DNA of 28,877 nucleotides from a virus. The stretch lies in the IMG/VR virus record IMGVR_UViG_3300000882_000001. One strand, 5' to 3'. The position numbers and the translations under genes are program-made. Shown piece by piece: positions 18,895 through 28,877 of the stretch. Below the pieces are notes generated by a model, which worked only from the letters and a program-made list of their open reading frames with translations, had not been told where the DNA came from and did no database searches. Within the stretch, counting starts at the first letter, position 1; every line of letters begins with the position of its first letter.

Positions 18895-19268
18895 TGGCGC
18901 CAACGTCAAGCCTGACCCAGCGCGAACGGGACAACCTACATGAGCAGACGGTGGAGGCGCTGCTTGACCATGAGGCGGAGAGCAGCAGGCGGCAAGAAGG
19001 GCTGACTACCCGCCTTGACCGCATCGAAGCCACACAGCAGCGCATCCTTGACGCGCTGAACCTCGGCAATACCTCGATATGGGGCGTCATCCTCCGCTTG
19101 ATCGACCGAGCGACCGCCAGCACTATCGGCACCGTCGCCCTGCTGTCCTTGATCGCCGTCGCCCTGCTGATCGGCGCCTCGGTCTATCTCGGCGCCGACC
19201 ATGTCCTCGCTATCGTCGCGGGGCGCGTTAGCCTCGGCGCTCCTCTGCCACCAACGGAGACACCATGA
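18894..19268 (+). CDS. holin-like membrane protein (124 aa)
   Basis: TAATG overlap. The N-terminus is coiled-coil-like, followed by the hydrophobic segment TIGTVALLSLIAVALLIGASVYL. Confidence 0.5.
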   Translation: MAPTSSLTQRERDNLHEQTVEALLDHEAESSRRQEGLTTRLDRIEATQQRILDALNLGNTSIWGVILRLIDRATASTIGTVALLSLIAVALLIGASVYLGADHVLAIVAGRVSLGAPLPPTETP

Positions 19269-19477
19269 TCAATGAGCCTGATGTTTCCATCTCCAGCTCC
19301 GGCGGAGTCTACGGGTCCGGCTCCAGCCTGCCGACCGTCAGATCCCGGCAGCAAGGGGTAGCCCTGTCTCGTCTGCGGGCGTGGCATCGTTGCCTACTCT
19401 CTGGCGGCGATGATGCAGCCCGCGAGGCGGCATTGTCCGGGCCGGTATTCAGCCCGGTACCCGCCAGAACAAGCTGA
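19265..19477 (+). CDS. hypothetical ORF (70 aa), coding status uncertain
   Basis: The only support is an ATGA overlap with the upstream gene. The composition is not convincing. Confidence 0.25.
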   Translation: MINEPDVSISSSGGVYGSGSSLPTVRSRQQGVALSRLRAWHRCLLSGGDDAAREAALSGPVFSPVPARTS

Positions 19478-19576
19478 CCTGCCCTGTCGGCGGCGTCTCT
19501 GCCCTGCGCGCGGGGGTCGGTGCCGGGGTCATGGTCGGGCGTGGCCATGCCTCTATTGTAGCCCGTCGCAGATCCT

Positions 19577-19622
19577 CCCGGCCCGGCCGCCTCCCCCTGT
19601 GACAGCCCGTGGCCGGGTCGGG
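19577..19622. terminator. Long GC hairpin at the convergent junction (possible bidirectional terminator and/or part of attP)
   Basis: CCCGGCCCGGCC (19577-19588) pairs with GGCCGGGTCGGG (19611-19622) at 11 of 12 positions. The loop carries the palindrome CTGTGACAG. Confidence 0.4.
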
Positions 19623-19649
19623 CAGCGCGGGGAAGTTGACCCGAAAAAA

Positions 19650-20831
19650 CTATCGGCGTTGTCCCTTGACGTTGACATCTATTTCAGTCTCTGTCATACC
19701 TTGCGACCCCTCGGACAAACGCCGGTAAGTGCGCGTTGTGACAGGATGCTGTGACAGGCTGCCATTTTCACCGCCCAGCCCCGCCCGCTCGACTGCCCGC
19801 ACGAGGTCAGCCGCCGATGCCCGCCGGTAGTGCCGCAGCGCGGTGGCGGCGGAGTGACCGAGGATCTGCGCGGCAGCGCCGACGTCGGCCCCGCTCTGGT
19901 AGAGGGCATCGACGGCAGCCCGCCTCAGCCCGTGCGGGGTGACGTGCGCGATCCCCAGGTCGCGGCAGCCCTGCCGCAGCGCGAGCCGCAGACCCTGCCC
20001 GGCGGACACCGCAGGCCACACGCGCTCACCGGGCTGCTGCATGCGCCACTCGCGCAGGGTCGCCACGATCCCCGCGCCCAGCGGCACCACCCGCTCCCCG
20101 GTCTTGCCGCTGACGGTGACCCGCGCGCCGGACAGATCGACCTGCGCCCAGCACAGATCCGCGATCTCCCCGATCCGGCAGCCCGTGGCTCCCAGCAGCA
20201 GCAGCGCCACCCGCTGCCAGCCATCGGACTGCGCCGCCAGAGCGCCGATCTCTGCGCGGCTGGGCGTGTACCGCAGCCGCCCGCCCCGCGACACCACCCG
20301 CACCCTCGGCAGCGCGCGGGCTACCCAGCCCTCCTCCATCGCCCATCGCCACGCCGTACCCAGGATCGTCATGTCCAGCCGCACCGTCGCCGATGCCCGC
20401 CGCGCCCGGAGCTGGCGATCCCGGTAGCCCTCGACAGTCGCCCGGCGCACGTCGAGCAGCGCCACGTCGCCCAGCTCGTCAGCCACCAGGCGGCGCGCGG
20501 CCACGAGGTAGCAGTCCACCGAGGCGGGGCTCAGGTCGGCGCGCTGCTGCTGGCCGCCGCACCAGACTTCCAGCAGATCCCGAACCGTGGGCGGCGCACC
20601 GTGGGCGCGCGGGGCCGGGTCGGGGCGGTGGGTCTCTCCGGCGGCGACGCTGGCACCGAGGCGGCGCTGGATCTCTGCGACCGTACCCCAGGCGCACCAG
20701 ACGGTCTCGCGTCCGCCTGAGCCGTCCGCCCGATCCGCCCGCCAGTACCACCGGGCGTCTGCGCGAGGCCCTCGCGCAACCCGGGCGGTCAGCGGATCGG
20801 CATGGATCGGGCGGGGTCGCTTGGGCTTCAT
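19650..20831 (-). CDS. int: tyrosine recombinase / phage integrase (393 aa)
   Basis: Catalytic pattern: LLLLGATGCRIGE (Arg), HGLRR (His-x-x-Arg), ILGHS, LRHYRR (Tyr). Confidence 0.93.
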   Translation of the reverse strand: MKPKRPRPIHADPLTARVARGPRADARWYWRADRADGSGGRETVWCAWGTVAEIQRRLGASVAAGETHRPDPAPRAHGAPPTVRDLLEVWCGGQQQRADLSPASVDCYLVAARRLVADELGDVALLDVRRATVEGYRDRQLRARRASATVRLDMTILGTAWRWAMEEGWVARALPRVRVVSRGGRLRYTPSRAEIGALAAQSDGWQRVALLLLGATGCRIGEIADLCWAQVDLSGARVTVSGKTGERVVPLGAGIVATLREWRMQQPGERVWPAVSAGQGLRLALRQGCRDLGIAHVTPHGLRRAAVDALYQSGADVGAAAQILGHSAATALRHYRRASAADLVRAVERAGLGGENGSLSQHPVTTRTYRRLSEGSQGMTETEIDVNVKGQRR

Positions 20832-21100
20832 CGTTTGGGTCTCAGGTCTGCTCTGGGCATGGGCTTAACGGGGGTCGGGGGCGGGGTCGAATTGGCAGCA
20901 GGCTCCGGCTCGCGGAAAAACCGGATCACATCGCCCCAGATCACTACCTGCCGTCCTCGACGGCACCGGATCAGACCCTCCTCGCGCAGCAGCGCCAGCG
21001 CATCGGCCAGCCGCATCGGCAGCAGCGCGGCTGCATCGGTCGGGGAGAGGATCGCGGCCTCTCCGAGCTGCCGGCGGCGGTCATCTGCATCAGCCATCAT
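20828..21100 (-). CDS. xis: excisionase-like HTH protein (90 aa)
   Basis: ATGA overlap with the int start. The segment ILSPTDAAALLPMRLADALALLREEGLI resembles the excisionase/MerR-type HTH. AGGAGG lies upstream. Confidence 0.65.
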   Translation of the reverse strand: MMADADDRRRQLGEAAILSPTDAAALLPMRLADALALLREEGLIRCRRGRQVVIWGDVIRFFREPEPAANSTPPPTPVKPMPRADLRPKR

Positions 21101-21248
21101 CCACCTCCTGCGCCCGTCGGGCTTCTTCCCCTGTCATCGACACCGCCACCCAGCCGGTGATCCCTGTCGCTGTCAGCACCGTGATCGGCCCGCGCCACAG
21201 CAGGAGCAGGCGGGCGGCGAGGATGGCGAGCTCGTGCCTGCGTCTCAT
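21090..21248 (-). CDS. small membrane protein (52 aa), not in the supplied ORF track
   Basis: My own translation is MRRRHELAILAARLLLLWRGPITVLTATGITGWVAVSMTGEEARRAQEVDDG. ATGA overlap with the upstream stop. Its 3' end overlaps the xis start and carries the xis SD. Confidence 0.45.
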   Translation of the reverse strand: MRRRHELAILAARLLLLWRGPITVLTATGITGWVAVSMTGEEARRAQEVDDG

Positions 21249-21682
21249 ACCGCCCCCATCGCGCCGACCGCGCCCAGCCCCAGCATCCCCATCACCACCG
21301 CATCCTGCGCCGGGGCGCTCTCTGCGTACCGATCCAGCATCGCCCGCTCCCGGCGGCTGATCCTGCCGTAGCTCAGGGTGATCGGCAGGCGCCGGAATTC
21401 ATCGACGTAGGGGGCCAGCTCCTCCGGCCACGCGCCGCGCTTGAGGGTGTTGACGATGTGAGGCGGCAGCCCGCAGCACACGATCTCCGTCAGCACCAGG
21501 CCGCGCTCCTGGCTCTCGACATAGGCGGCCAGGATCGACAGCAGCCAGGGCGCCGCCTCGCGCCAGATCGACGGCCAGCCGTGGGCGAGGGGGTGAAGGG
21601 TGAGGGCCGTTCCCTGATCCAGTTCGGGCCAGGAGCCGATCCAGTGGACTCCGTCTGGAGAAAGGAAGAGGTGGAGGGTCAC
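21245..21682 (-). CDS. hypothetical protein (145 aa) with a Gly-zipper hydrophobic C-terminal tail
   Basis: GTG start in a GTGA overlap. The C-terminus is VVMGMLGLGAVGAMGAV. Confidence 0.55.
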   Translation of the reverse strand: MTLHLFLSPDGVHWIGSWPELDQGTALTLHPLAHGWPSIWREAAPWLLSILAAYVESQERGLVLTEIVCCGLPPHIVNTLKRGAWPEELAPYVDEFRRLPITLSYGRISRRERAMLDRYAESAPAQDAVVMGMLGLGAVGAMGAV

Positions 21683-23505
21683 GCCGCACCCGTCAGCGCC
21701 TGCGACCGCAGCACCATCGCCCTGTCGAGGCGGAGCGCCGCGACGCTGTCCAGCTCGTCAGCGCTCAACACGATCCCGCATGCCAGTGTCTCGCTCTGCT
21801 GCTGCTGCAGCTTCTCCGCCTCCTGCTCCAGCCGGTACGCGCTGCCCCACAGCTCGATCCGGCGCTCCAGATCGGCGGCGATGAGGTTCGGCGTAGCCGT
21901 GGCCAGCCGAACCTCAGCGAGCCGGAGGTCGCGCTCCAGGTCGCTGTAGGAGCGCCGCTCGGAGGCGAGTTCATCCATCAGGCCGGTGACGCGGCTCTTC
22001 AGATCCTTCACCTCGCGCTCCAGCCGGTCCGCCTTCACCATCGCACCCTGCTTCTCCTCGATCAGCCGCTTGACGATCTCCGTCTGCGCCCTGACCACCA
22101 CCAGCACATCGGCCCCGTCCACGCCCTCGTCGGTCTCGATGCCCAGGGCGTCGGCGAGGTCGGCGATCAGCGTCCCGGCGGCCTCCTCGGCGGCGAGGGC
22201 TTCCTGCAGGCGGGCGTCGGTGTCGGCGGGCTTCTTTTCAGCGGGCATGGCGGCTCCTTTCGAGGAGAGCGGGTAGAGACCCGGCAGCGCCGGATCGTTG
22301 GGGAGGATCAGCCCTTTCTTGCGGAGGGCGTGGGATGCGTCGTGGATCGCCATGATGCCGACGCCGAGCGCGGGCGCCGCGCCGACAGCGGAGATCCCCG
22401 GCTGTTCGGTGATGAGCTGCAGCAGCCGACCGCGCATGGTGTCTGGCTCTACGAGCGGGCGTTCGGGCGCCGGAGGCAGCAGACCCCGCTGGCGGAGGGT
22501 GCCGACGGCGCTGCGGACGCTGGCGGGGCTGGTGTTGAAGCGCGCGGCCAGCGTGGTGCTGGTGACCCGAGGCTCGGCCAGCACGGCGGCCTGGATGCGC
22601 TCCTGGAGCTGGGGTTCACGCGGCTGGGGCTCGGCGGGGGGAGCGGGTTCGGCGCGGCGACGGGGGGCGGGCGGCAGGGCGCCGGAGCGGCGCAGGAGGC
22701 TGATGCAGCTCCGCACGGTGTCTGGACTGGTGCCGAGGCGGGCGGCCAGGGCGGCGCTGCTGATGTCCGGGTCAGCCAGCACGGCGGCGCGGATCGCCTC
22801 CTTCTGAGCGCCAGCGCGCGGGCGCGAAGATGGGGCGTACTGGCGAGCGGGCGGGGGCAGCACCCCGCGCTTGCGGAGCCGGCAGACGCAGGAGCGGACG
22901 CCGCCCGCGCTGATGCCGAGGCGGGCGGCCAGGACGACGCTGGAGAGGTTCGGCTCGTCCATCATGGCGTCCTGCACTTTGTCCTGGATCAGTGCATCGG
23001 CCTCACCACCCACGGCGGCGGTCCTGGTGGCAGGCACAGCCTTCCGCGACACCGGCTCCGCAGGTCTGGCAGTCGTCGGGCTGGGCGCGGTCTTCGCGGG
23101 CGGGGGCGGTTCGACCGGCGAGGCGTCGGGCGGCGAGGCGGTGGGAAGGCTCTTTGCGGCGGGAACCCATTCTGTCTCCGGGGTAATATTGTTAGAAAGC
23201 GGGATTGATGCGCCAGTGTCGGCATCGACAGGCGGCGCGGGGGCAGGGGTGGAGGCGGTCTCCGTGGGCCGGGCGCGCAGCACCGGGGCGGGGGACTGGA
23301 TGGTGATGGGCGGCGCGACGGGAAGGGCGGCGCGGCGGGTGTCCTCTGCGGCGAGGGCGACGGCGTCCCGGCCTGACTGCCAGCGCTGCAGACAGAGGTA
23401 GCAGACCCATCCGTAGACCGTGTGGTTCCGGCTGGGGCCGCGCTGCTCGCAGATCGGGCAGAGGCGCGGGCGGGTGTCGGTGGCTTCGAATTCAGATCGA
23501 GACAT
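21679..23505 (-). CDS. multidomain DNA-binding protein (608 aa): N-terminal Zn ribbon, Pro/Ala linker, four tandem AsnC/Lrp-type wHTH-like repeats, C-terminal coiled coil
   Basis: AGGAGGG lies 8 nt before ATG 23505. The Zn ribbon is CPIC..CYLC. The four roughly 47-aa repeats are of the form (I/L)xxAVLAxPxxSSxxLAARLGxSPxTVRSxxxxLRxxGxLPP. A heptad-like region follows. Confidence 0.75.
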   Translation of the reverse strand: MSRSEFEATDTRPRLCPICEQRGPSRNHTVYGWVCYLCLQRWQSGRDAVALAAEDTRRAALPVAPPITIQSPAPVLRARPTETASTPAPAPPVDADTGASIPLSNNITPETEWVPAAKSLPTASPPDASPVEPPPPAKTAPSPTTARPAEPVSRKAVPATRTAAVGGEADALIQDKVQDAMMDEPNLSSVVLAARLGISAGGVRSCVCRLRKRGVLPPPARQYAPSSRPRAGAQKEAIRAAVLADPDISSAALAARLGTSPDTVRSCISLLRRSGALPPAPRRRAEPAPPAEPQPREPQLQERIQAAVLAEPRVTSTTLAARFNTSPASVRSAVGTLRQRGLLPPAPERPLVEPDTMRGRLLQLITEQPGISAVGAAPALGVGIMAIHDASHALRKKGLILPNDPALPGLYPLSSKGAAMPAEKKPADTDARLQEALAAEEAAGTLIADLADALGIETDEGVDGADVLVVVRAQTEIVKRLIEEKQGAMVKADRLEREVKDLKSRVTGLMDELASERRSYSDLERDLRLAEVRLATATPNLIAADLERRIELWGSAYRLEQEAEKLQQQQSETLACGIVLSADELDSVAALRLDRAMVLRSQALTGAA

Positions 23506-23929
23506 GGGCAACGCCCTCCTGTTGCGCGTACCAGTTGAGGCGGCGCCCAATGGACAGGCCGGCGAGGGGGCTGGACACCGGCACCGGCGACAGAGACCGG
23601 AGCAGCTCGACGTAGGGCAGGCCAGCGTGTACCTCGATGCGCGTAGCTCCGGTGATCGCGAGTGCCAGGCCGAGCTGCGCCCGCACATCGGCCTGATACC
23701 GGGCCAGCTCTACCGGCGGCTGACGTAGACGCTCATGCATGCTGAGGTCGTATGGAGCTATGCGAGCCAGCGGCCAGATCAGCCCGTGGAGGGCCGACAG
23801 GATGGCCCAGGGGGCGCCCTGTGCCTCGACGTACTGGCGAGCGGCGCGGAATAGACATCCGGTGTAGAGGTCGGCAGCCGGACACGCTCCAGCAGCCTTT
23901 GTTCTTCCACATCCGACGACGATCAGCAT
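23492..23929 (-). CDS. hypothetical protein, DUF6884-like pattern (145 aa)
   Basis: The pattern is VVGCGRTK..PAADLY.G.LF..ILSALHGLI.P...I.PYDLSM. AGGAG lies upstream of ATG 23929. The family assignment is from memory. Confidence 0.55.
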   Translation of the reverse strand: MLIVVGCGRTKAAGACPAADLYTGCLFRAARQYVEAQGAPWAILSALHGLIWPLARIAPYDLSMHERLRQPPVELARYQADVRAQLGLALAITGATRIEVHAGLPYVELLRSLSPVPVSSPLAGLSIGRRLNWYAQQEGVAHVSI

Positions 23930-23945
23930 TTTACACTCCTGGATG

Positions 23946-23987
23946 ATGATGCGCCGTCCCGGAGTCGAACCGGGGATCCGTGCGGCG
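23946..23987 (-). ncRNA. tRNA-like acceptor/T-arm minihelix (truncated tRNA remnant or structured RNA element)
   Basis: Minus strand reads GCGCCG-cacggatc-CCCGG-TTCGACT-CCGGG-a-CGGCGC-A-tca. It has a canonical T-loop and an acceptor-like stem but no D or anticodon arms. Confidence 0.5.
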
Positions 23988-23997
23988 CTGCTGGGGA

Positions 23998-24126
23998 TCA
24001 GGTCGCCTGACGACGACGACGATCACGACGACGACGAGGGGGACACATGAGGCGGAATCCGTACCCGGCGATCAGGCCGGCCTCGACGGTGGCGAGGATC
24101 TGCACGAGGATCAGCAGGTCGCTCAC
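23998..24126 (-). CDS. 42-aa hydrophobic peptide with poly-Arg tail, not in the supplied ORF track
   Basis: GTG start in a GTGA overlap with the upstream stop, with GGGAGG upstream. The translation is (M)SDLLILVQILATVEAGLIAGYGFRLMCPPRRRRDRRRRQAT. Confidence 0.5.
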   Translation of the reverse strand: MSDLLILVQILATVEAGLIAGYGFRLMCPPRRRRDRRRRQAT

Positions 24127-24605
24127 AGGTCACCTCCCGTCGGCGCCGAGCAGTCGCCAGCCTTCCAGCCCGCCACGCACACCACCCACACTTTGATGCA
24201 GGTCTCCCCGCTGGCCGGCGTCGTCGCACAGCAGGCGGCCAGGGCGCAGCGCGGCGCGACGCATGCGGCGGGCGCAGGGGGCGCGGTCAGGCTGTCGAGG
24301 TAGCCGTCAGCGTCGGCAGGCGGCGCGCTCTGGCTGTGGATCTGCGCGTCGTAGAGCCGGGAGACGACCTCCGCCAGCGTGATCGCGTCGCCGCTGCTCA
24401 TGCGGGCCGTGGCGACGATCAGCGCCCGCCACGCGCCAGAGCCAGCCGACGGGCGGGGCAGACCGAGGCGGCCCAGCTCGTCGGCGACCGTGCCATAGTC
24501 CAGCCCGAAGTCACGGAGGCGCGCACAGAACGCGCGGCGGACTTCGGCGGTGAACAGCGCGTCGTGGGCGGCTTTCGGCCCGCCCTGGCCACGGGCGCGG
24601 CTCAC
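24123..24605 (-). CDS. hypothetical protein (160 aa), HTH-like N-terminus and Cys-rich C-terminus
   Basis: GTG start in a GTGA overlap. The segment DYGTVADELGRLGLPR is HTH-like. Confidence 0.55.
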   Translation of the reverse strand: MSRARGQGGPKAAHDALFTAEVRRAFCARLRDFGLDYGTVADELGRLGLPRPSAGSGAWRALIVATARMSSGDAITLAEVVSRLYDAQIHSQSAPPADADGYLDSLTAPPAPAACVAPRCALAACCATTPASGETCIKVWVVCVAGWKAGDCSAPTGGDL

Positions 24606-24832
24606 AGCTCACACTCGCAAGACTCGATGCCGACGCCGCAGGACTCACAGGGGATGTTGACCATGCGCGGGCGGTACATCGGCACCCCGGAGCGGCACAT
24701 CAGACAGGCGATCTCGCCTTCGGGGAACGTCACCACCCCGCTGTCGTTGCAGACGGTGCAGGCGGGGGGAGGGGGCTGGCTGGGCGGGTTGCCGATGATG
24801 TAGCGCCCGCCGGGGATGCGCTGGATCATCAC
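24602..24832 (-). CDS. small Cys-rich zinc-ribbon protein (76 aa)
   Basis: Cys motifs: CTVC..SG, CLMC, CESC, CEC. ATGA overlap upstream. Confidence 0.6.
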   Translation of the reverse strand: MMIQRIPGGRYIIGNPPSQPPPPACTVCNDSGVVTFPEGEIACLMCRSGVPMYRPRMVNIPCESCGVGIESCECEL

Positions 24833-25092
24833 ATCACCTCATCAGCGGAGGCGAGATCGTCGCAGTCCAGCTCGTGCGTGTCGTCGTAGTCGTCGTCGCA
24901 GTCGTCGTAGAGCGGCCCGGTCTCGGCTTCGCCCTGGTCGCGGATCGCGTCGGCGATGTCCTGCGCGGCGTCGATGGCGATCTCAGCGAGGGCGGCGTCG
25001 TCGCAGTCGCAGGCGGCGGCCTGGATGTCGTGCAACAGGCCGAACAGCAGGTCGGTGGTGTGGAGGTGAGAGAGGGGGGAGAGGGTGTGCAT
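24829..25092 (-). CDS. highly acidic small protein (87 aa), first gene of the leftward early operon
   Basis: AGGAGG (25107-25102) lies 9 nt before the ATG. It has 20 Asp and 5 Glu, one Arg and no Lys. Confidence 0.7.
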   Translation of the reverse strand: MHTLSPLSHLHTTDLLFGLLHDIQAAACDCDDAALAEIAIDAAQDIADAIRDQGEAETGPLYDDCDDDYDDTHELDCDDLASADEVM

Positions 25093-25115
25093 CGTCGGAA
25101 GCCTCCTGACGATAT

Positions 25116-25151
25116 TAGTCTATGACCTGTCTCCCCTCATGTCAAGGACTA
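25116..25151. promoter_or_regulatory. Putative operator pair over the PL-like promoter
   Basis: TAGTCTATGAC (25116-25126), a 14-nt spacer, then GTCAAGGACTA (25141-25151). This is an imperfect inverted repeat related to GTCATAGGCTA at 25813-25823. Confidence 0.4.
25117..25145 (-). promoter_or_regulatory. PL-like leftward early promoter
   Basis: On the minus strand: TTGACA (25145-25140), a 17-nt spacer, TAGACT (25122-25117), then the SD and ATG 25092. Confidence 0.5.
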
Positions 25152-25161
25152 ATACGTCGTC

Positions 25162-25191
25162 TTGACATACGGTATCGGTGGATACCAATAT
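25162..25191 (+). promoter_or_regulatory. Orphan rightward promoter-like element pointing into the 3' end of the repressor gene
   Basis: TTGACA (25162-25167), an 18-nt spacer, CAATAT (25186-25191). The spacer contains the palindrome GGTATC-GGTG-GATACC (25171-25186). Confidence 0.35.
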
Positions 25192-25361
25192 TGCGCAACA
25201 TGCCGGCAGGGCATCTGGGTTATGTGGCTGGCATGTTCAGCAACAAACGACCGGCGATGCTCGCCCGTGCCATCAACGCGATGAGTACACTGTCTGACGA
25301 TCTTCTCACAGCCGAGGTACTGCGACTGGAGTCTATGTCTGGGGTAAGTCCGCCGGCTACA

Positions 25362-25796
25362 CTATCGGCTTTGTGCCAGCAGGACGACGGCGCGCCGGGT
25401 GTCGGAGGGGAGGGCGCCCCAGCAGAGCGCCAGACTGATCAGCTCATTCCGCAGGTCAGCGGGGAGCGAGATCAGGCGGCGGCGGGTCTCACCGGGGATC
25501 GTGACCCAGACCTCGGCGATCTGGCGGATCTCTGCGAGATGCAGCGCTGAGAGCCTGCCCATGCCCAGATCCAGCGGGTCGGGGCGCCGCACTTCGACTG
25601 TGGCCCCGCAGGCCTCCGCCCACTTGTCGAGCAGATCGGTAGGCAGGAAGCGCCTGCCTGTCTCGTAGGAGGAGATCGATGACTGGTCCAGGCCGATGGC
25701 GGACGCGATCTGCTTCTGCGTCAGCCCGGCCGCGACGCGCATGTCCCTGAGTTCGGTGTGCCACTGTGTCATGCTGTCGCTCATACCTGCTGACAT
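25362..25796 (-). CDS. CI-like repressor, XRE-family HTH (144 aa; longest ORF start at 25817)
   Basis: The HTH segment is LTQKQIASAIGLDQSSISSYETG. GGAGG (25810-25806) lies 9 nt before ATG 25796. It is divergent from a Cro-like gene. Confidence 0.8.
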   Translation of the reverse strand: MSAGMSDSMTQWHTELRDMRVAAGLTQKQIASAIGLDQSSISSYETGRRFLPTDLLDKWAEACGATVEVRRPDPLDLGMGRLSALHLAEIRQIAEVWVTIPGETRRRLISLPADLRNELISLALCWGALPSDTRRAVVLLAQSR

Positions 25797-25798
25797 GC

Positions 25799-25849
25799 TT
25801 GCGTTCCTCCATGTCATAGGCTAATATGCGCGTATGACCTGTTCGGCAA
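25799..25849. promoter_or_regulatory. Genetic switch: overlapping divergent promoters with shared -10 region and flanking inverted repeat
   Basis: Rightward: TTGCGT (25799-25804), 17 nt, TAATAT (25822-25827). Leftward: TTGCCG (25849-25844), 17 nt, TATTAG (25826-25821). The repeat GTCATA (25813-25818), 14 nt, TATGAC (25833-25838) brackets the -10 boxes. Confidence 0.45.
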
Positions 25850-26112
25850 GCCCCACCCGACCCCACCCGACCACCACTGGTGGATGGCTGCGACGCTGGC
25901 GCGAGCGCGCGGGGCTGACGCAGGCCCAGGCCGCCGAACAGATCGGCGTGATCCAGTCCACGATCTCGTTCTGGGAGAACGAGCGCAACAGCGTCCCGCT
26001 CGACGAGCTGCGCCGGCTGGTGGCGCTGTACGGCGTCCCCGTCGAGGAGGCCGGGCTGCGGGTGATCGCGCCCGCGCAGGCTCTGACCGCTCCCGATCAG
26101 GTGGCCGCGTGA
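25834..26112 (+). CDS. Cro-like XRE-family HTH regulator (92 aa), probably leaderless
   Basis: The HTH segment is LTQAQAAEQIGVIQSTISFWENE. There is no SD, and the ATG lies 6 nt after the TAATAT box. Confidence 0.75.
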   Translation: MTCSASPTRPHPTTTGGWLRRWRERAGLTQAQAAEQIGVIQSTISFWENERNSVPLDELRRLVALYGVPVEEAGLRVIAPAQALTAPDQVAA

Positions 26113-26621
26113 ACGCCATCCCCCTGTTCCCTGAGCAAACTGAGGTTTCCCATGCCAATCGCGGCATGGACTGGGAGCAGGTCGCCGAGGAGCAGATCGG
26201 GGTGTACCGGCGCGATGGGTGGTACTGCCTGCGCCAGCACCCGCCTGTCTGCATCCAGAAGGGCTACAACGCGACGGTGATCGGCTCTGCCGCCTGCGAC
26301 TGGGTGATCAGCCGGGGCGGGCAGACGGTGGTGTGCGACCTGAAGAGCTGGTCAAGCACGCTCCGCTGGCCGCTGGAGCAGGTCAAAGACCACCAGGCCG
26401 ATCACCTCGACGCAGCCAGCCGGGCGCACCTGATCGCCGGGATCGCGCTGCTGCTCGACAGCGCCGCCTGGTGGCTGCCCTGGGGCGAGATCGGGCCGAT
26501 GTGGCACCGGTGGCGGCGCGGGGTGGCGGCGCGCGGGGAGTGCAGCCTCGGCGCGGAGCAGCTGCTGATCGTGGGCGAGCGATGCAGCGGGGTGGACTTC
26601 CTCGCGGTGGCGGTTCGATGA
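26109..26621 (+). CDS. recU: RecU-like Holliday junction resolvase (170 aa)
   Basis: GTGA overlap. Motifs: NRGMDWEQ..Y, DW..(x)..CDLKSW, PLEQVKDHQADHL. These follow the RecU pattern NRGM..E / D..DxK / HQ. Confidence 0.6.
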   Translation: MNAIPLFPEQTEVSHANRGMDWEQVAEEQIGVYRRDGWYCLRQHPPVCIQKGYNATVIGSAACDWVISRGGQTVVCDLKSWSSTLRWPLEQVKDHQADHLDAASRAHLIAGIALLLDSAAWWLPWGEIGPMWHRWRRGVAARGECSLGAEQLLIVGERCSGVDFLAVAVR

Positions 26622-26713: not shown

Positions 26714-28447
26714 ATGGCACATGAAGGGCGTCCGACGGACAGATCCGTCAGCTACGAGATCGAACACGGCATGATCGGCGCGCTGCTGATGTACGGGCGC
26801 ACCGGGCTGGCGATCGCGCAGGCGGAGGGCTGGTCTCCGGCGCTCTGTCGTCGCCCGCAGCATGAGGCGCTGGCGGAGTGGCTCGCCGAGGGCATCGAGG
26901 CGGGCGCGGTCAGCGACCTCAACACCGCCCTGGCGCACCTCGCGCTGAGCCCGCCGACGCATAGAAACGCGCCGGGACACAGCGATGCGCTGATGATGCT
27001 GTGCGTCGCGCCGCAGCATGCGCCCATCCTGGAGGCGATCCCCGCGTCGGTGCGGGCGATGGCGCAGGCCGTGGCCGTCGAGCGGCTGGCCGAGCTGCGG
27101 GTCGCCCTCGATGTCGCGGCGCGCAGCGGGGACATGGCGGAGGTGGGGCGCATCGCCGGGCGGATCGCGGCGCTGACTGCCGCTCCGAAGGCGCCCAGGA
27201 AGACGGCCCCGGAAGAGGCGGCCATCGGCGACGACGACCGGCCCGACAGCGGCACCATCGCGGCGCTGAAGAAGATCCCCAAGCGCGCCCGCGACGACCG
27301 GCGCGTCCAGGCGCGGGTGGTGATCGAGAACGACCCCCGCTGGTCTTCGCTCCGGTTCAACGAGATGAAGCAGCGGGCCGAGCGCAACGGGCGGCTCTAC
27401 ACCGACGCCGACGACGCTGGCACCACCGACTGGCTCTCCTGGGTCTACGGCATCCAGGTGGGCCGTGACGTCGCGGCAGGCGTGGTCGATCTGGTGGCGC
27501 GGAAACGCAGCTACGACCCCCTGCGCGACTACCTGACGGGGCTGGCGTGGGATGGCGTGCCGCGCCTCGACACCTGGATGCAACGCGGCCTGGGCGTCGA
27601 GGACGGCCCCCTCCAGAGCCGGATGGGCGCATGCTGGATGATCGGCGCTGCGGCGCGGGCGCTGCGGCCGGGCTGCCAGATGGACACCATGCTGGTGTTC
27701 GTCGGCAAGCAGGGCAAGGGGAAGACGCGGGCGATGGAGGCGATCGCCGGTGCCGAATTCTTCAACGAGACCGAGATCCGCATCGGGGAGATCCGGGGTC
27801 TCCAGCAGCTCGGCGATGCCTGGATCCATGAGATCGGGGAGATGACGCCGCTGCTCGCCAACCGCGTCGACCGGAACGTCTTCAAGAACTTCCTCACCGT
27901 CAAGGTGGACAGCTACCAGCGGCTGCACGCGAAGCGGAGCGGGGAGCATCCCCGCCGGTGCGTCTTCGTCGGCACCTGCAACGACAAGGAGCTGCTCAAC
28001 GACCCGACCGGCGCCCGCCGCTTCTGGCCGGTCATCTCTACCAGCGTGGACCTCGCCTGGATCCGCGCCAACCGGGATCAGCTCTGGGCCGAGGCGCGCG
28101 TCCGTCTCGACAGCGGGGAGCAGTGGCACCTGACGCCCACAGAGGAGGCCGAGCTGGAATTGCTGCAGCGCCCCTTTCGCAAGACCGACCCCTGGGAGGA
28201 GCCTCTGAGCGTGTGGCTGTCCCAGCCTGAGCGCAGCCATGAGCCGGAGACGGCGATCACCGCTGCGCGCCTTTTGGCGGACGTGATCTCCCGCCCGCTG
28301 GGAATGCAGACCCAGGCGGACAAGACCCGCCTCGGCGCGTGCATGGCGGCGGTGGGCTGGATGCACAAGGTCGCGTGGTGCAAAACCGCCAAAAAAGCGG
28401 TCAACTGCTACGTCCCCGATCCCTCGAAAGTGGAGGTTGAATCGTGA
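26714..28447 (+). CDS. replicative helicase: DnaB-N-terminal-like domain plus VirE/D5-type SF3 P-loop NTPase (577 aa)
   Basis: The N-terminus is EIEHGMIGALLMYG..PQHEALAEWL. The VirE pattern is YDPLRDYLTGLAWDGVPRLDTW, GKQGKGKT (Walker A), WIHEIGEM, FVGTCND, TGARRFWPV. Confidence 0.8.
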   Translation: MAHEGRPTDRSVSYEIEHGMIGALLMYGRTGLAIAQAEGWSPALCRRPQHEALAEWLAEGIEAGAVSDLNTALAHLALSPPTHRNAPGHSDALMMLCVAPQHAPILEAIPASVRAMAQAVAVERLAELRVALDVAARSGDMAEVGRIAGRIAALTAAPKAPRKTAPEEAAIGDDDRPDSGTIAALKKIPKRARDDRRVQARVVIENDPRWSSLRFNEMKQRAERNGRLYTDADDAGTTDWLSWVYGIQVGRDVAAGVVDLVARKRSYDPLRDYLTGLAWDGVPRLDTWMQRGLGVEDGPLQSRMGACWMIGAAARALRPGCQMDTMLVFVGKQGKGKTRAMEAIAGAEFFNETEIRIGEIRGLQQLGDAWIHEIGEMTPLLANRVDRNVFKNFLTVKVDSYQRLHAKRSGEHPRRCVFVGTCNDKELLNDPTGARRFWPVISTSVDLAWIRANRDQLWAEARVRLDSGEQWHLTPTEEAELELLQRPFRKTDPWEEPLSVWLSQPERSHEPETAITAARLLADVISRPLGMQTQADKTRLGACMAAVGWMHKVAWCKTAKKAVNCYVPDPSKVEVES

Positions 28448-28866
28448 GCCTTATACCCTCCTTATACCCTCCTTATACCCTCCTTATACCCTGCCTTATA
28501 CCCTCCTCGATCCAGGTTGGAAGCGGGTTCTTATACCCTTATACCCTGTTCTGCGGTTCCGGTTGCTGCACTGCGCCGCCCCTGCCTCTCTCTACTCTCT
28601 CTAAGGGTATAAGAGGGTATAAGGGTATAAGGTCATCGGTTGAACGCCGGTCATTTCCTTATACCCTCCTTATACCCCCCCAGGGTGAGCGGTATAAGGC
28701 GACCGAGCGGCGCGCCCCCGGCTGCATCGTCTGCGGCGGGAGCGGCCTCGACATCACCCGCCCGCTGCCCTGGGGCGGCTACGAGAGCTGCGCCCGCTGC
28801 CTGATCCCGCCGGGCTGGCCGCCGACGGTGCATCCGGCCTGGCGCCGGCACATGGGGGCGGCATGA
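28444..28866 (+). CDS. ORF spanning the iterons with a C-terminal CxxCxGxG...CxxC zinc-ribbon; coding status uncertain
   Basis: GTGA overlap with the helicase stop, and an ATGA overlap with the next gene across the join. The only canonical in-frame start is GTG 28444. The C-terminus reads GCIVCGGSG..CARC. Confidence 0.35.
   Translation: MSLIPSLYPPYTLLIPCLIPSSIQVGSGFLYPYTLFCGSGCCTAPPLPLSTLSKGIRGYKGIRSSVERRSFPYTLLIPPQGERYKATERRAPGCIVCGGSGLDITRPLPWGGYESCARCLIPPGWPPTVHPAWRRHMGAA
28449..28699. repeat. Iteron field: 13 copies of an 11-bp unit, CCTTATACCCT (9 direct, 4 inverted); probable replication origin
   Basis: Direct copies start at 28449, 28460, 28471, 28482, 28494, 28529, 28537, 28657 and 28668. 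Inverted copies lie at 28604-28614, 28614-28624, 28622-28632 and 28689-28699. Confidence 0.85.
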
Positions 28867-28877
28867 GCGCCAGCGAG
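28855..28877. repeat. Terminal overlap identical to 1-23
   Basis: Direct comparison of the two window ends. Confidence 0.9.

Follow-up and report, generated by a model that had tools for sequence, protein, structure and literature searches.

What is the function of a phage protein that strings four helix-turn-helix (HTH) modules along one chain, and which DNA would it read? The question is raised by the virus record IMGVR_UViG_3300000882_000001 of IMG/VR, in which a minus-strand open reading frame (ORF) at positions 21679-23505 translates into 608 amino acids. All positions refer to the window, which is the whole stretch of 28,877 nucleotides that was analysed. Its two ends share 23 bases (1-23 = 28855-28877), which shows that the genome, about 28.85 kb in length, is circular and complete. 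Genes for terminase, portal, capsid and endolysin are located on its plus strand. The source appears to be a small temperate phage of an alphaproteobacterium; the host can be placed only roughly, by one 4.2-kb contig of a metagenome-assembled genome (MAG).

A first-pass annotation of this DNA had suggested that the four modules, or beads, bind the iterons of the same genome. We arrive at a different answer. With a probability of roughly 0.4, the 608-residue protein is a multivalent DNA-binding regulator. Its tail predicts that it is probably dimeric, and a domain swap in a sister lineage points, by analogy, to a probable role in transcription.

Architecture of the 608-residue protein

The mechanical ORF reaches farther upstream, to 23688, an extension without support. 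Upstream of 23505 the codon-position GC changes frame, AGGAGG is found 9 nt 5' of the ATG at 23505, and the N-termini of all homologues read MSRSEF or MSVSNF. Based on these three criteria the start was set at 23505, in agreement with the ORF as it had been annotated. The features of the protein are listed in Table 1.

The four modules R1 to R4 comprise about 47 residues each, and their boundaries confirm the placement of the repeats at 22300-22995. R1, R2 and R3 are mutually 45-57% identical. Their local alignment scores of 112-140 compare to 21-24 ± 4-5 for shuffled sequences, which corresponds to z values of 19-26 (19-23 for R1 with R2 and R3, 19-26 for R2, 23-26 for R3). The Pfam family HTH_24 (PF13412) matches three stretches with 58.3 bits at a cut-off of 21.9 (E 5.6e-16). 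In a full-length AlphaFold2 model calculated from a family alignment of 13 sequences, each module forms three helices (pLDDT 72-87), and the tethers between them stay below 50. By means of Foldseek, single modules were superposed on the domains with which AsnC and Lrp-like proteins of archaea bind DNA, with an rmsd of 1.2-1.6 Å over 45-49 residues (2cg4_A, 1.6 Å over 48 residues; 2dbb, 2ia0 and 7fby, 1.2 Å over 45-46 residues, probability 1.00). It is therefore fair to call the helices AsnC/Lrp-type, as the first-pass annotation did, and both the HTH_24 profile and the predicted fold bear out the assignment of the modules to AsnC-type HTHs.

The likeness to this group (HTH_24; HTH_AsnC-type, PF13404) is confined to the modules, which pass the Pfam threshold and fit the N-terminal domains of AsnC, PH0061 and PF0864. 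Unlike an AsnC/Lrp regulator, the protein carries four HTH copies on disordered Pro-rich tethers within 608 residues. Moreover, its C-terminus is all-helical, and the RAM/ACT-like effector domain of these regulators gave no AsnC_trans_reg match at E<=1. Due to the missing RAM domain, the protein does not qualify as an AsnC/Lrp regulator; its score with the NCBIfam model of AsnC is 18.7 bits compared to a cut-off of 227.

A further difference from AsnC/Lrp HTHs concerns the wing. No strand was modelled in R1-R3; helix 3 passes straight into a G-x-L-P-P-P motif and then into the tether. According to the models, R1-R3 are thus wingless three-helix HTHs of AsnC type, and the previous designation of all four modules as winged HTHs holds for R4, which has beta-bridges, and not for the other three. 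Helix 3 of R1-R3 always starts with S/T-P-x-x-V-R-S. The canonical pattern LAxxLGxS...V..R...L..G and a basic helix 3 are kept in the modules, the net charge of which is +2 to +4, and proline-rich tethers of 12-25 residues join the beads. In homologues of about 50% overall identity, the beads are 71-92% identical, compared to 38-45% for the linker and 11-13% for the stalk; across all compared homologues, module identity spans 71-98%. The beads are conserved while linker and stalk diverge, which argues for purifying selection on the beads.

Wingless modules might also serve as a protein scaffold that binds phage or host proteins, like the tandem winged helices of UFL1/DDRGK1, cullins and kleisin-binding subunits. 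The complex 8b9x (UFL1/DDRGK1) is among the top Foldseek matches of the full model (E 0.03), and the Cys residues in helix 3 of R1 and R2 are conserved. However, the matches to tandem winged helices are non-significant and have an rmsd of about 20 Å. Single modules, in contrast, fit DNA-bound HTH domains with the low rmsd values given above and retain the AsnC-type pattern with its basic helix 3. We consider the scaffold quite improbable.

R4 is only weakly related to R1-R3 (z 5-9), and it had been described as a degenerate copy. This description has to be abandoned. Most of the invariant columns of the family fall into this part, in a dense run from G359 to S415 that covers R4 and the motif P-x-D-x3-P-G-x-Y-P-L-x-S. 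In a second AlphaFold2 model of residues 350-608 (pLDDT 84), R4 reaches a pLDDT of about 90 and displays beta-bridges at residues 371, 400, 410 and 412. It superposes on the winged helices of Zalpha, LexA, YvoA and MarR over 57-63 residues with an rmsd of 1.9-2.5 Å and a TM score, normalised to the target, of 0.72-0.82. Because of the invariant columns, the wing and the winged-helix matches, R4 is the conserved core rather than a degenerate copy, and the models suggest that it is the only true winged helix of the four modules.

The C-terminal tail has a net charge of -13 and was modelled as helices at residues 430-454, 464-537 (pLDDT 91-98), 543-572 and 582-605, the longest of which measures 73-74 residues. 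A heptad-rich C-terminus of about 180 residues had been proposed; the long helical region was confirmed, and the heptad character only in part. The signal is modest, with at best five to six of eight a/d positions occupied in residues 463-530 and an overall z of about 2.1 compared to shuffled sequences. The stalk, delimited by the invariant residues K485 and L541, is 24 to 88 residues long across the family, and its longer versions contain Gly-rich inserts. None of the differences in length is a multiple of seven, so that the heptad phase is not preserved; a hairpin or a stalk of variable length fits better than one continuous parallel coil. For the tail, Foldseek returned no fold match in the PDB or in BFVD at E<=1e-3, and a Pfam search at E<=10 yielded nothing usable. 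In L066 the tail also occurs as a stand-alone gene of 169 residues. The best partial Foldseek matches are TrmB/TrmBL2, MarR and MntR/DtxR, which resemble the succession of R4 and long helices; all of them have E>=0.05 and cover the winged helix only, and the 180-residue tail is without counterpart in the PDB and BFVD.

At the N-terminus, each of the ten aligned sequences covering this region has C16, C19, C35 and C38 (CxxC-x15-CxxC) as well as W33, and the four cysteines and W33 are also kept in the homologues P0016 and P0023. In the AlphaFold2 model the head has a pLDDT of 36-58 and contains helices instead of hairpins, and at E<=10 no Pfam family matched, zinc-ribbon families included. Of the Zn ribbon that had been annotated here, the two conserved CxxC knuckles therefore stand, whereas the ribbon fold found no support. 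The adjoining linker consists of 24% Pro and 19% Ala (63% Pro, Ala, Ser and Thr). This agrees with its earlier description as Pro/Ala-rich; its length is 108 residues and not the approximately 130 given previously.

Table 1. Features of the 608-residue protein and its promoter.
Feature	Residues	Position in the window	Strand	Basis
Complete 608-residue gene (stop codon 21679-21681)		21679-23505	-	translation, start evidence, 14 homologues
Four-Cys motif RPRLCPIC-x15-CYLC, putative zinc-binding head	12-45	23371-23472	-	conservation
Disordered Pro/Ala-rich linker	61-168	23002-23325	-	composition, pLDDT <50 (AlphaFold2)
R1, three helices without wing	169-218	22852-23001	-	HTH_24/PaaX stretches; helices 168-183, 189-196, 200-212; pLDDT 72-78
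R2, three helices without wing	231-280	22666-22815	-	best HTH_24 stretch 242-275; helices 231-244, 250-257, 261-274; pLDDT 77-87
R3, three helices without wing	298-346	22468-22614	-	MarR_2 and GntR stretches 308-343; helices 300-310, 316-322, 327-339
R4, complete winged HTH, conserved family core	356-416	22258-22440	-	invariant columns, model, Foldseek
All-helical acidic tail, presumed oligomerisation domain with variable stalk	429-608	21682-22221	-	models, charge
Early-left promoter TTGACA-17-TAGACT (25145 to 25117) in inverted repeat I18		25113-25154	-	sigma-70-like site search

Bead number, domain swaps and a possible role in transcription

A survey of homologues for the number of repeats, which the first-pass annotation had recommended, revealed that the bead number does vary. 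Eight full-length proteins contain three beads of the R1-R3 type plus R4. Only one such bead precedes R4 in P0005, P0006, P0016 and the re-read 486-residue protein of the related phage L003; R3 is kept in these two-module variants, in diverged form. P0023 has four matches to the profile of the R1-R3-type bead (five beads by eye) and is without the tail. Among close relatives, the number of beads upstream of R4 thus ranges from one to at least four, and, P0023 apart, every complete family member possesses the core of R4 and tail. The protein of the window is itself a mosaic: its R1-R3 are 94-98% identical to those of P0002 or P0004, and its R4 together with the helices behind it shares 86-96% identity with the two-bead protein P0005 and only 46-62% with P0002.

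A domain swap was found in P0024 (736 residues), which contains Sigma70_r2, Sigma70_r4, a further winged helix, two beads and the family tail ending in LALTG. The sigma regions replace the Cys head and R1-R2 and are fused to the core of R3, R4 and tail. In a related phage, the gene (L005, 2826-5036) takes the corresponding early-left place behind the XRE switch. Sigma regions and beads are joined in this way in three independent samples, two of them beyond L005 (L006 and L007), and the junction is therefore not an assembly artefact. P0025, which was considered as a split version of this fusion, was rejected as a truncated gene call on short contigs. Sigma-70 factors resemble the family in being HTH beads on linkers, and P0024 combines genuine r2 and r4 regions with the family core. 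The protein of the window differs from them in having neither r2 nor r4 above threshold (Sigma70_r4_2: E 0.045, 13.9 bits compared to 25.7), and a search of the window and the related loci for a sigma gene of its own had no result.

The analysis establishes how the chain is built, to which class its fold belongs, which parts are conserved, where the gene lies in its operon, that the number of beads varies and that a domain is swapped; DNA binding, oligomerisation, the role in transcription and the targets are inferred. The regulator would be produced early, from the leftward promoter of the phage. The R4 winged helix and the long helical tail may constitute an oligomeric core that joins two or more chains. 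Joined to this core, the basic beads with their common helix-3 start would strengthen binding, through avidity, to arrays of short sites that resemble each other, and several tethered beads per chain could occupy loosely spaced sites or bridge separate DNA segments. The four-Cys head would then be the effector and not the anchor, and could affect transcription by contacting or recruiting RNA polymerase. Transcription is suggested as the process because sigma-70 r2/r4 replaces the head at the same genomic position in the sister lineage; as judged from the sequences, the data contain no other hint of a function. Multiple HTH units on flexible linkers are also present in the Tc3/mariner transposases, the paired domain, the double homeodomain of DUX4 and the tandem winged-helix transcription subunits RPC34/TFIIE-beta, to which two-module Foldseek matches were obtained, and such bipartite or tandem readers recognise extended or split DNA sites. 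The likeness is a structural analogy (E 0.4-0.8); there, the units number two or three and each has a fixed role, in contrast to the variable number seen here.

In agreement with an early regulator, the gene belongs to a tight early operon behind one promoter of sigma-70 type, which is combined with an inverted repeat resembling an operator. Several observations weigh on the other side. A k-mer search of the genome detected no DNA target array besides the origin iterons, and tandem winged-helix arrays can be protein scaffolds, UFL1/DDRGK1 being a top Foldseek match. The zinc head is without a confident model and matches no known RNA-polymerase-binding domain. The sigma fusion occurs in one lineage only and is an association, not a mechanism. 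Oligomerisation is a prediction with a weak heptad signal, and the models are those of monomers, calculated from shallow alignments of 13-19 sequences.

The same beads could also coat, compact or silence host or incoming DNA, with low specificity or directed at the host, as a nucleoid-type or bridging protein that serves host takeover or the exclusion of superinfecting phages. A chain of many basic beads, weakly tethered and combined with an oligomerising tail, resembles bridging nucleoid proteins, and free variation of the bead number among close phages is expected if avidity outweighs a fixed layout of sites. In lambdoid phages, early-left operons typically hold genes for host takeover and exclusion, and the gene studied here lies in such an operon. 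It has a weak PHROG match to a Ren-like exclusion protein; this match, however, is restricted to the HTH level, and comparison with the PADLOC defence models gave none beyond that level. Distant arrays retrieved with the same profile are fused to a MucR/Ros zinc finger, which is the DNA-binding domain of an alphaproteobacterial H-NS-like silencer; they are, however, matched in the HTH region only, with E 1e-23 to 1e-9. Furthermore, each orthologous bead shows very strong conservation where its recognition helix begins, which suggests specific contacts. We regard a nucleoid-type role as unlikely, though as one to be kept in mind.

The MucR/Ros zinc finger is combined with 5-13 tandem HTH beads in P0022, P0030, P0033, P0036 and P0037, which are of cellular or metagenomic origin. 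Their bead ends in L-R-R-R-G-L-L-P-P as in the family. Long arrays without the finger are P0026, from a low-GC source, P0028, P0029 and P0034. No description of MucR/Ros-fused HTH arrays was found in the literature.

The family is very rare. A word-indexed search yielded 14 homologues, all metagenomic, and the sole name attached to any of them, "DtxR family", had been assigned automatically. When 1.84 billion representative proteins were searched exhaustively with a hidden Markov model (HMM), 54 matched at E<=1e-3 and nine at E<=1e-30, none of the 54 being a named or characterised protein. In 185,579 species genomes one match was found, on the alphaproteobacterial MAG contig mentioned above. 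Searches of 50,697 phage records with tblastn (protein) and megablast (25 kb) were without a match, a scan of IMG/VR with family patterns found no relative, and PHROG matches were limited to the HTH level, among them the O-like phrog_391 and phrog_678 (E 0.26-0.36); the statement that no standard phage family has this layout was thus corroborated. PADLOC likewise returned an HTH-level match only. The Foldseek comparison that had been recommended gave a mixed outcome: single modules match HTH domains, whereas the full model found nothing at E<=1e-3 in the PDB and BFVD beyond single HTH or winged-HTH domains, and neither the full layout nor the tail has a significant match. A PDB sequence search with the family profile returned tropomyosin-like coiled-coil noise and a weak, uncharacterised NMR structure (2l5q, E 4e-4). 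No named counterpart of the whole chain exists in Pfam, PHROGs, NCBIfam, PADLOC, the PDB or BFVD, and a search of the literature on tandem-HTH, zinc-ribbon and coiled-coil phage proteins and on DUF6884 found no account of such an architecture. By sequence comparison, the protein is of the HTH_24/AsnC type at the level of its modules, with an unusual and rare architecture of the whole chain.

Origin iterons and the adjacent VapE-like helicase

The first-pass annotation had attributed the iterons of this genome to the 608-residue protein. On this model, the phased 11-bp iterons (28449-28505) would be the sites of cooperative binding by the beads, and the protein would be an origin-binding replication factor or a regulator of copy number or handcuffing. 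The array (28449-28700) starts 2 nt past the stop codon of a gene for a VapE-like superfamily 3 (SF3) helicase (26714-28447, plus strand; VapE-like_dom, E 3.8e-62). It comprises approximately 13 copies with the core TTATACCC, nine forward and three to four reverse, in place of the five that had been counted. Those five are the copies of CCTTATACCCT that recur at a spacing of 11-12 bp at 28449-28505; two more iterons are located at 28530-28550, three inverted ones at 28602-28631 and another two at 28656-28680. A k-mer cluster search of the genome found only these origin iterons and a coding repeat at 24857-25008, so that the iterons are real and are the sole clustered direct repeat, as had been claimed. 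This uniqueness speaks for the iteron model, as does the recognition-helix start shared by three beads, which is expected for the reading of direct repeats. In addition, the gaps of 17-25 residues between the modelled helices could span one turn of DNA (about 37 Å), and there is a weak PHROG likeness to O-like initiators.

The comparison with related phages points in the opposite direction. The helicase, integrase and repressor of L003 are 94%, 97% and 96% identical to those of the window. Its 486-residue protein is without R1 and R2, yet the iteron sequence, the five phased copies and the layout are the same. L001 possesses all four modules and has four phased copies. In every relative examined, the array directly adjoins the helicase gene, starting 2 nt past its stop codon, and the iteron sequence shifts with the helicase: the iteron is GTTATACCCT in L014 and CCTCATACCCT in L015, the helicases of which are 70% and 69% identical to that of the window. 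In L017 the first 100 residues of the helicase are 98% identical, the core 43-48%, and the last 90 residues, with 13-20%, have been replaced; here the iteron is TGTTCCTACCT. These three comparisons cover the helicase-origin region, the left operon lying outside the available sequence. Since TGTTCCTACCT also occurs in IMG/VR beside helicases that are only about 27% identical to that of L017, co-variation of helicase C-terminus and iteron is claimed for close relatives only. Cassettes of helicase and iterons are furthermore present in IMG/VR phage contigs without an ORF for an HTH array.

A precedent exists for the helicase as the reader. Self-loading SF3 helicases such as the Rep proteins of the SaPIs recognise 3'-adjacent iterons via a C-terminal winged helix, and those iterons point in opposite ways around a central region (PMC9371898). 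The helicase and iterons of the window reproduce this layout, with an SF3/VapE ATPase and 3' iterons in both orientations; for the N- and C-terminal parts of the helicase, Pfam contained nothing usable at E<=10. By analogy with this precedent, the iterons are better explained as sites of the helicase than of the 608-residue protein, and the arrangement resembles a cassette of self-loading helicase and origin that is exchanged by recombination in one piece. The 608-residue gene also lies about 5 kb from the iterons in the opposite operon, and its O-like PHROG matches have the high E values given above. The binding of the iterons by the four beads is therefore not supported, given L003, the adjacency and joint divergence of helicase and iterons, the SF3 precedent and the cassettes without an HTH-array ORF, and we consider it improbable.

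The comparison with known initiators leads to the same result. The helicase and the iterons match the layout of self-loading SF3 initiators of the SaPI Rep and P4 alpha type, whereas the 608-residue protein lacks an ATPase domain and its gene does not adjoin the origin. Like RepA/TrfA and lambda O, it combines several winged-helix or HTH domains in one chain, and the binding of direct repeats is the activity that had been proposed for it; unlike them, it is encoded remote from the origin, and its number of modules is untied to the number of iterons. No Pfam Rep family matched it. As far as sequence comparison goes, the protein is neither an AsnC/Lrp regulator nor a Rep- or O-type initiator nor a sigma factor.

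The iteron search also recovered a second record of the phage, IMG/VR UViG 3300027213_000303 (L073). This contig ends within the 608-residue gene and is about 1 kb shorter between the origin and the gene for the large terminase.

Operon setting and biological meaning

The gene belongs to a co-directional minus-strand run from 25092 to 19650, in which neighbours mostly overlap by 4-14 nt; the exception is a stretch of 193 nt (23930-24122) between a 160-residue ORF and a DUF6884 gene. Divergent XRE-type switch genes are located at 25362-25817 (minus strand) and 25834-26112 (plus strand). The early-left promoter was the sole sigma-70-like site found within 19000-26300, and no terminator-like site was detected on the minus strand downstream of it; on this sequence evidence it is the promoter that drives the operon with the 608-residue gene. 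Its inverted repeat measures 17 nt (TATTAGTCTATGACCTG / CATGTCAAGGACTAATA) and is probably the operator of the repressor, as predicted. A terminator-like hairpin is present 3' of the 151-residue XRE gene on the minus strand (25253-25265).

Members of the family are always located in the early-left operon of a single group of phages. In L001/L002, L003, L019 and L059 the gene likewise stands between the switch and the integrase; the contigs of P0016, P0021, P0022 and P0023 are too short for an informative gene context. In the window, the 608-residue gene lies 850 bp upstream of the tyrosine integrase gene (19650-20831) in a shared operon. The annotation had placed the gene upstream of xis and int; profile searches confirmed int and gave no support for xis. 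The ORF in the xis position (20828-21100, minus strand, 90 residues) overlaps the integrase start by 4 nt and had no match in Pfam (nothing usable at E<=10), PHROG or PADLOC, and its putative role as excisionase is suggested by position and size alone.

This proximity raises the possibility that the protein is an architectural or directionality factor of the integrase, in which Xis-like winged helices, linked covalently in one chain, would bend attP or attR. The excisionase Xis of lambda consists of a winged helix and recognises tandem direct sites. However, the 10-kb contig of P0024 carries no integrase between the fusion gene and the lysis and tail genes, and L001 combines nearly identical modules with an integrase of only 37% identity. 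Moreover, the att region at 19203-19649 contains no tandem repeats, and the usual xis position is already taken by the separate 90-residue ORF. We judge this role to be very improbable.

The immediate neighbours vary. Upstream of the 608-residue gene, the window contains the DUF6884 (YaaA-like) gene, which is truncated in L003 and absent from L001, where a Lar-like gene is found instead; DUF6884 is therefore a non-obligatory partner. In the window this gene (23492-23929, minus strand) overlaps the start of the 608-residue gene by 14 nt. Its product contains the motifs CxxxK (GCGRTK) and LSAxxG (LSALHG) and matches the PADLOC candidate PDC-M57A (7e-17) and, weakly, DpdC (7e-6). The first two genes of the early-left operon (24829-25092 and 24602-24832, both on the minus strand) are without a family match. 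One codes for an acidic protein of 87 residues and carries a repeated TCGTCGCAGTC motif, the other for a protein of 76 residues with a CxxC motif. A candidate hydrophobic ORF of 42 codons is located at about 23997-24125 on the minus strand.

Taken further, the regulator proposed here might represent an undescribed class of phage "HTH-array" factors. Its members would consist of a dimerising core of winged helix and stalk, one to at least four wingless beads and a swappable effector, either the four-Cys head or sigma-70 r2/r4. They would tether RNA polymerase to arrays of short sites as modular DNA-anchored initiation factors, with the MucR-zinc-finger arrays of 5-13 beads as cellular cousins. 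In this extended form the proposal is speculative and rather unlikely to hold.

The negative result on the iterons matters in its own right, as it assigns the origin iterons to a cassette of helicase and iterons that is exchanged as a whole. If the protein is indeed a multivalent binder with a variable number of beads and a swappable head, it would offer a natural system for relating avidity and tether length to the choice of DNA sites. It would also illustrate how phages rewire transcription without a conventional activator, and the sigma-fused relative may show arrays that deliver RNA polymerase directly. Knowledge of its function would annotate a conserved early gene in a group of freshwater and marine alphaproteobacterial phages.

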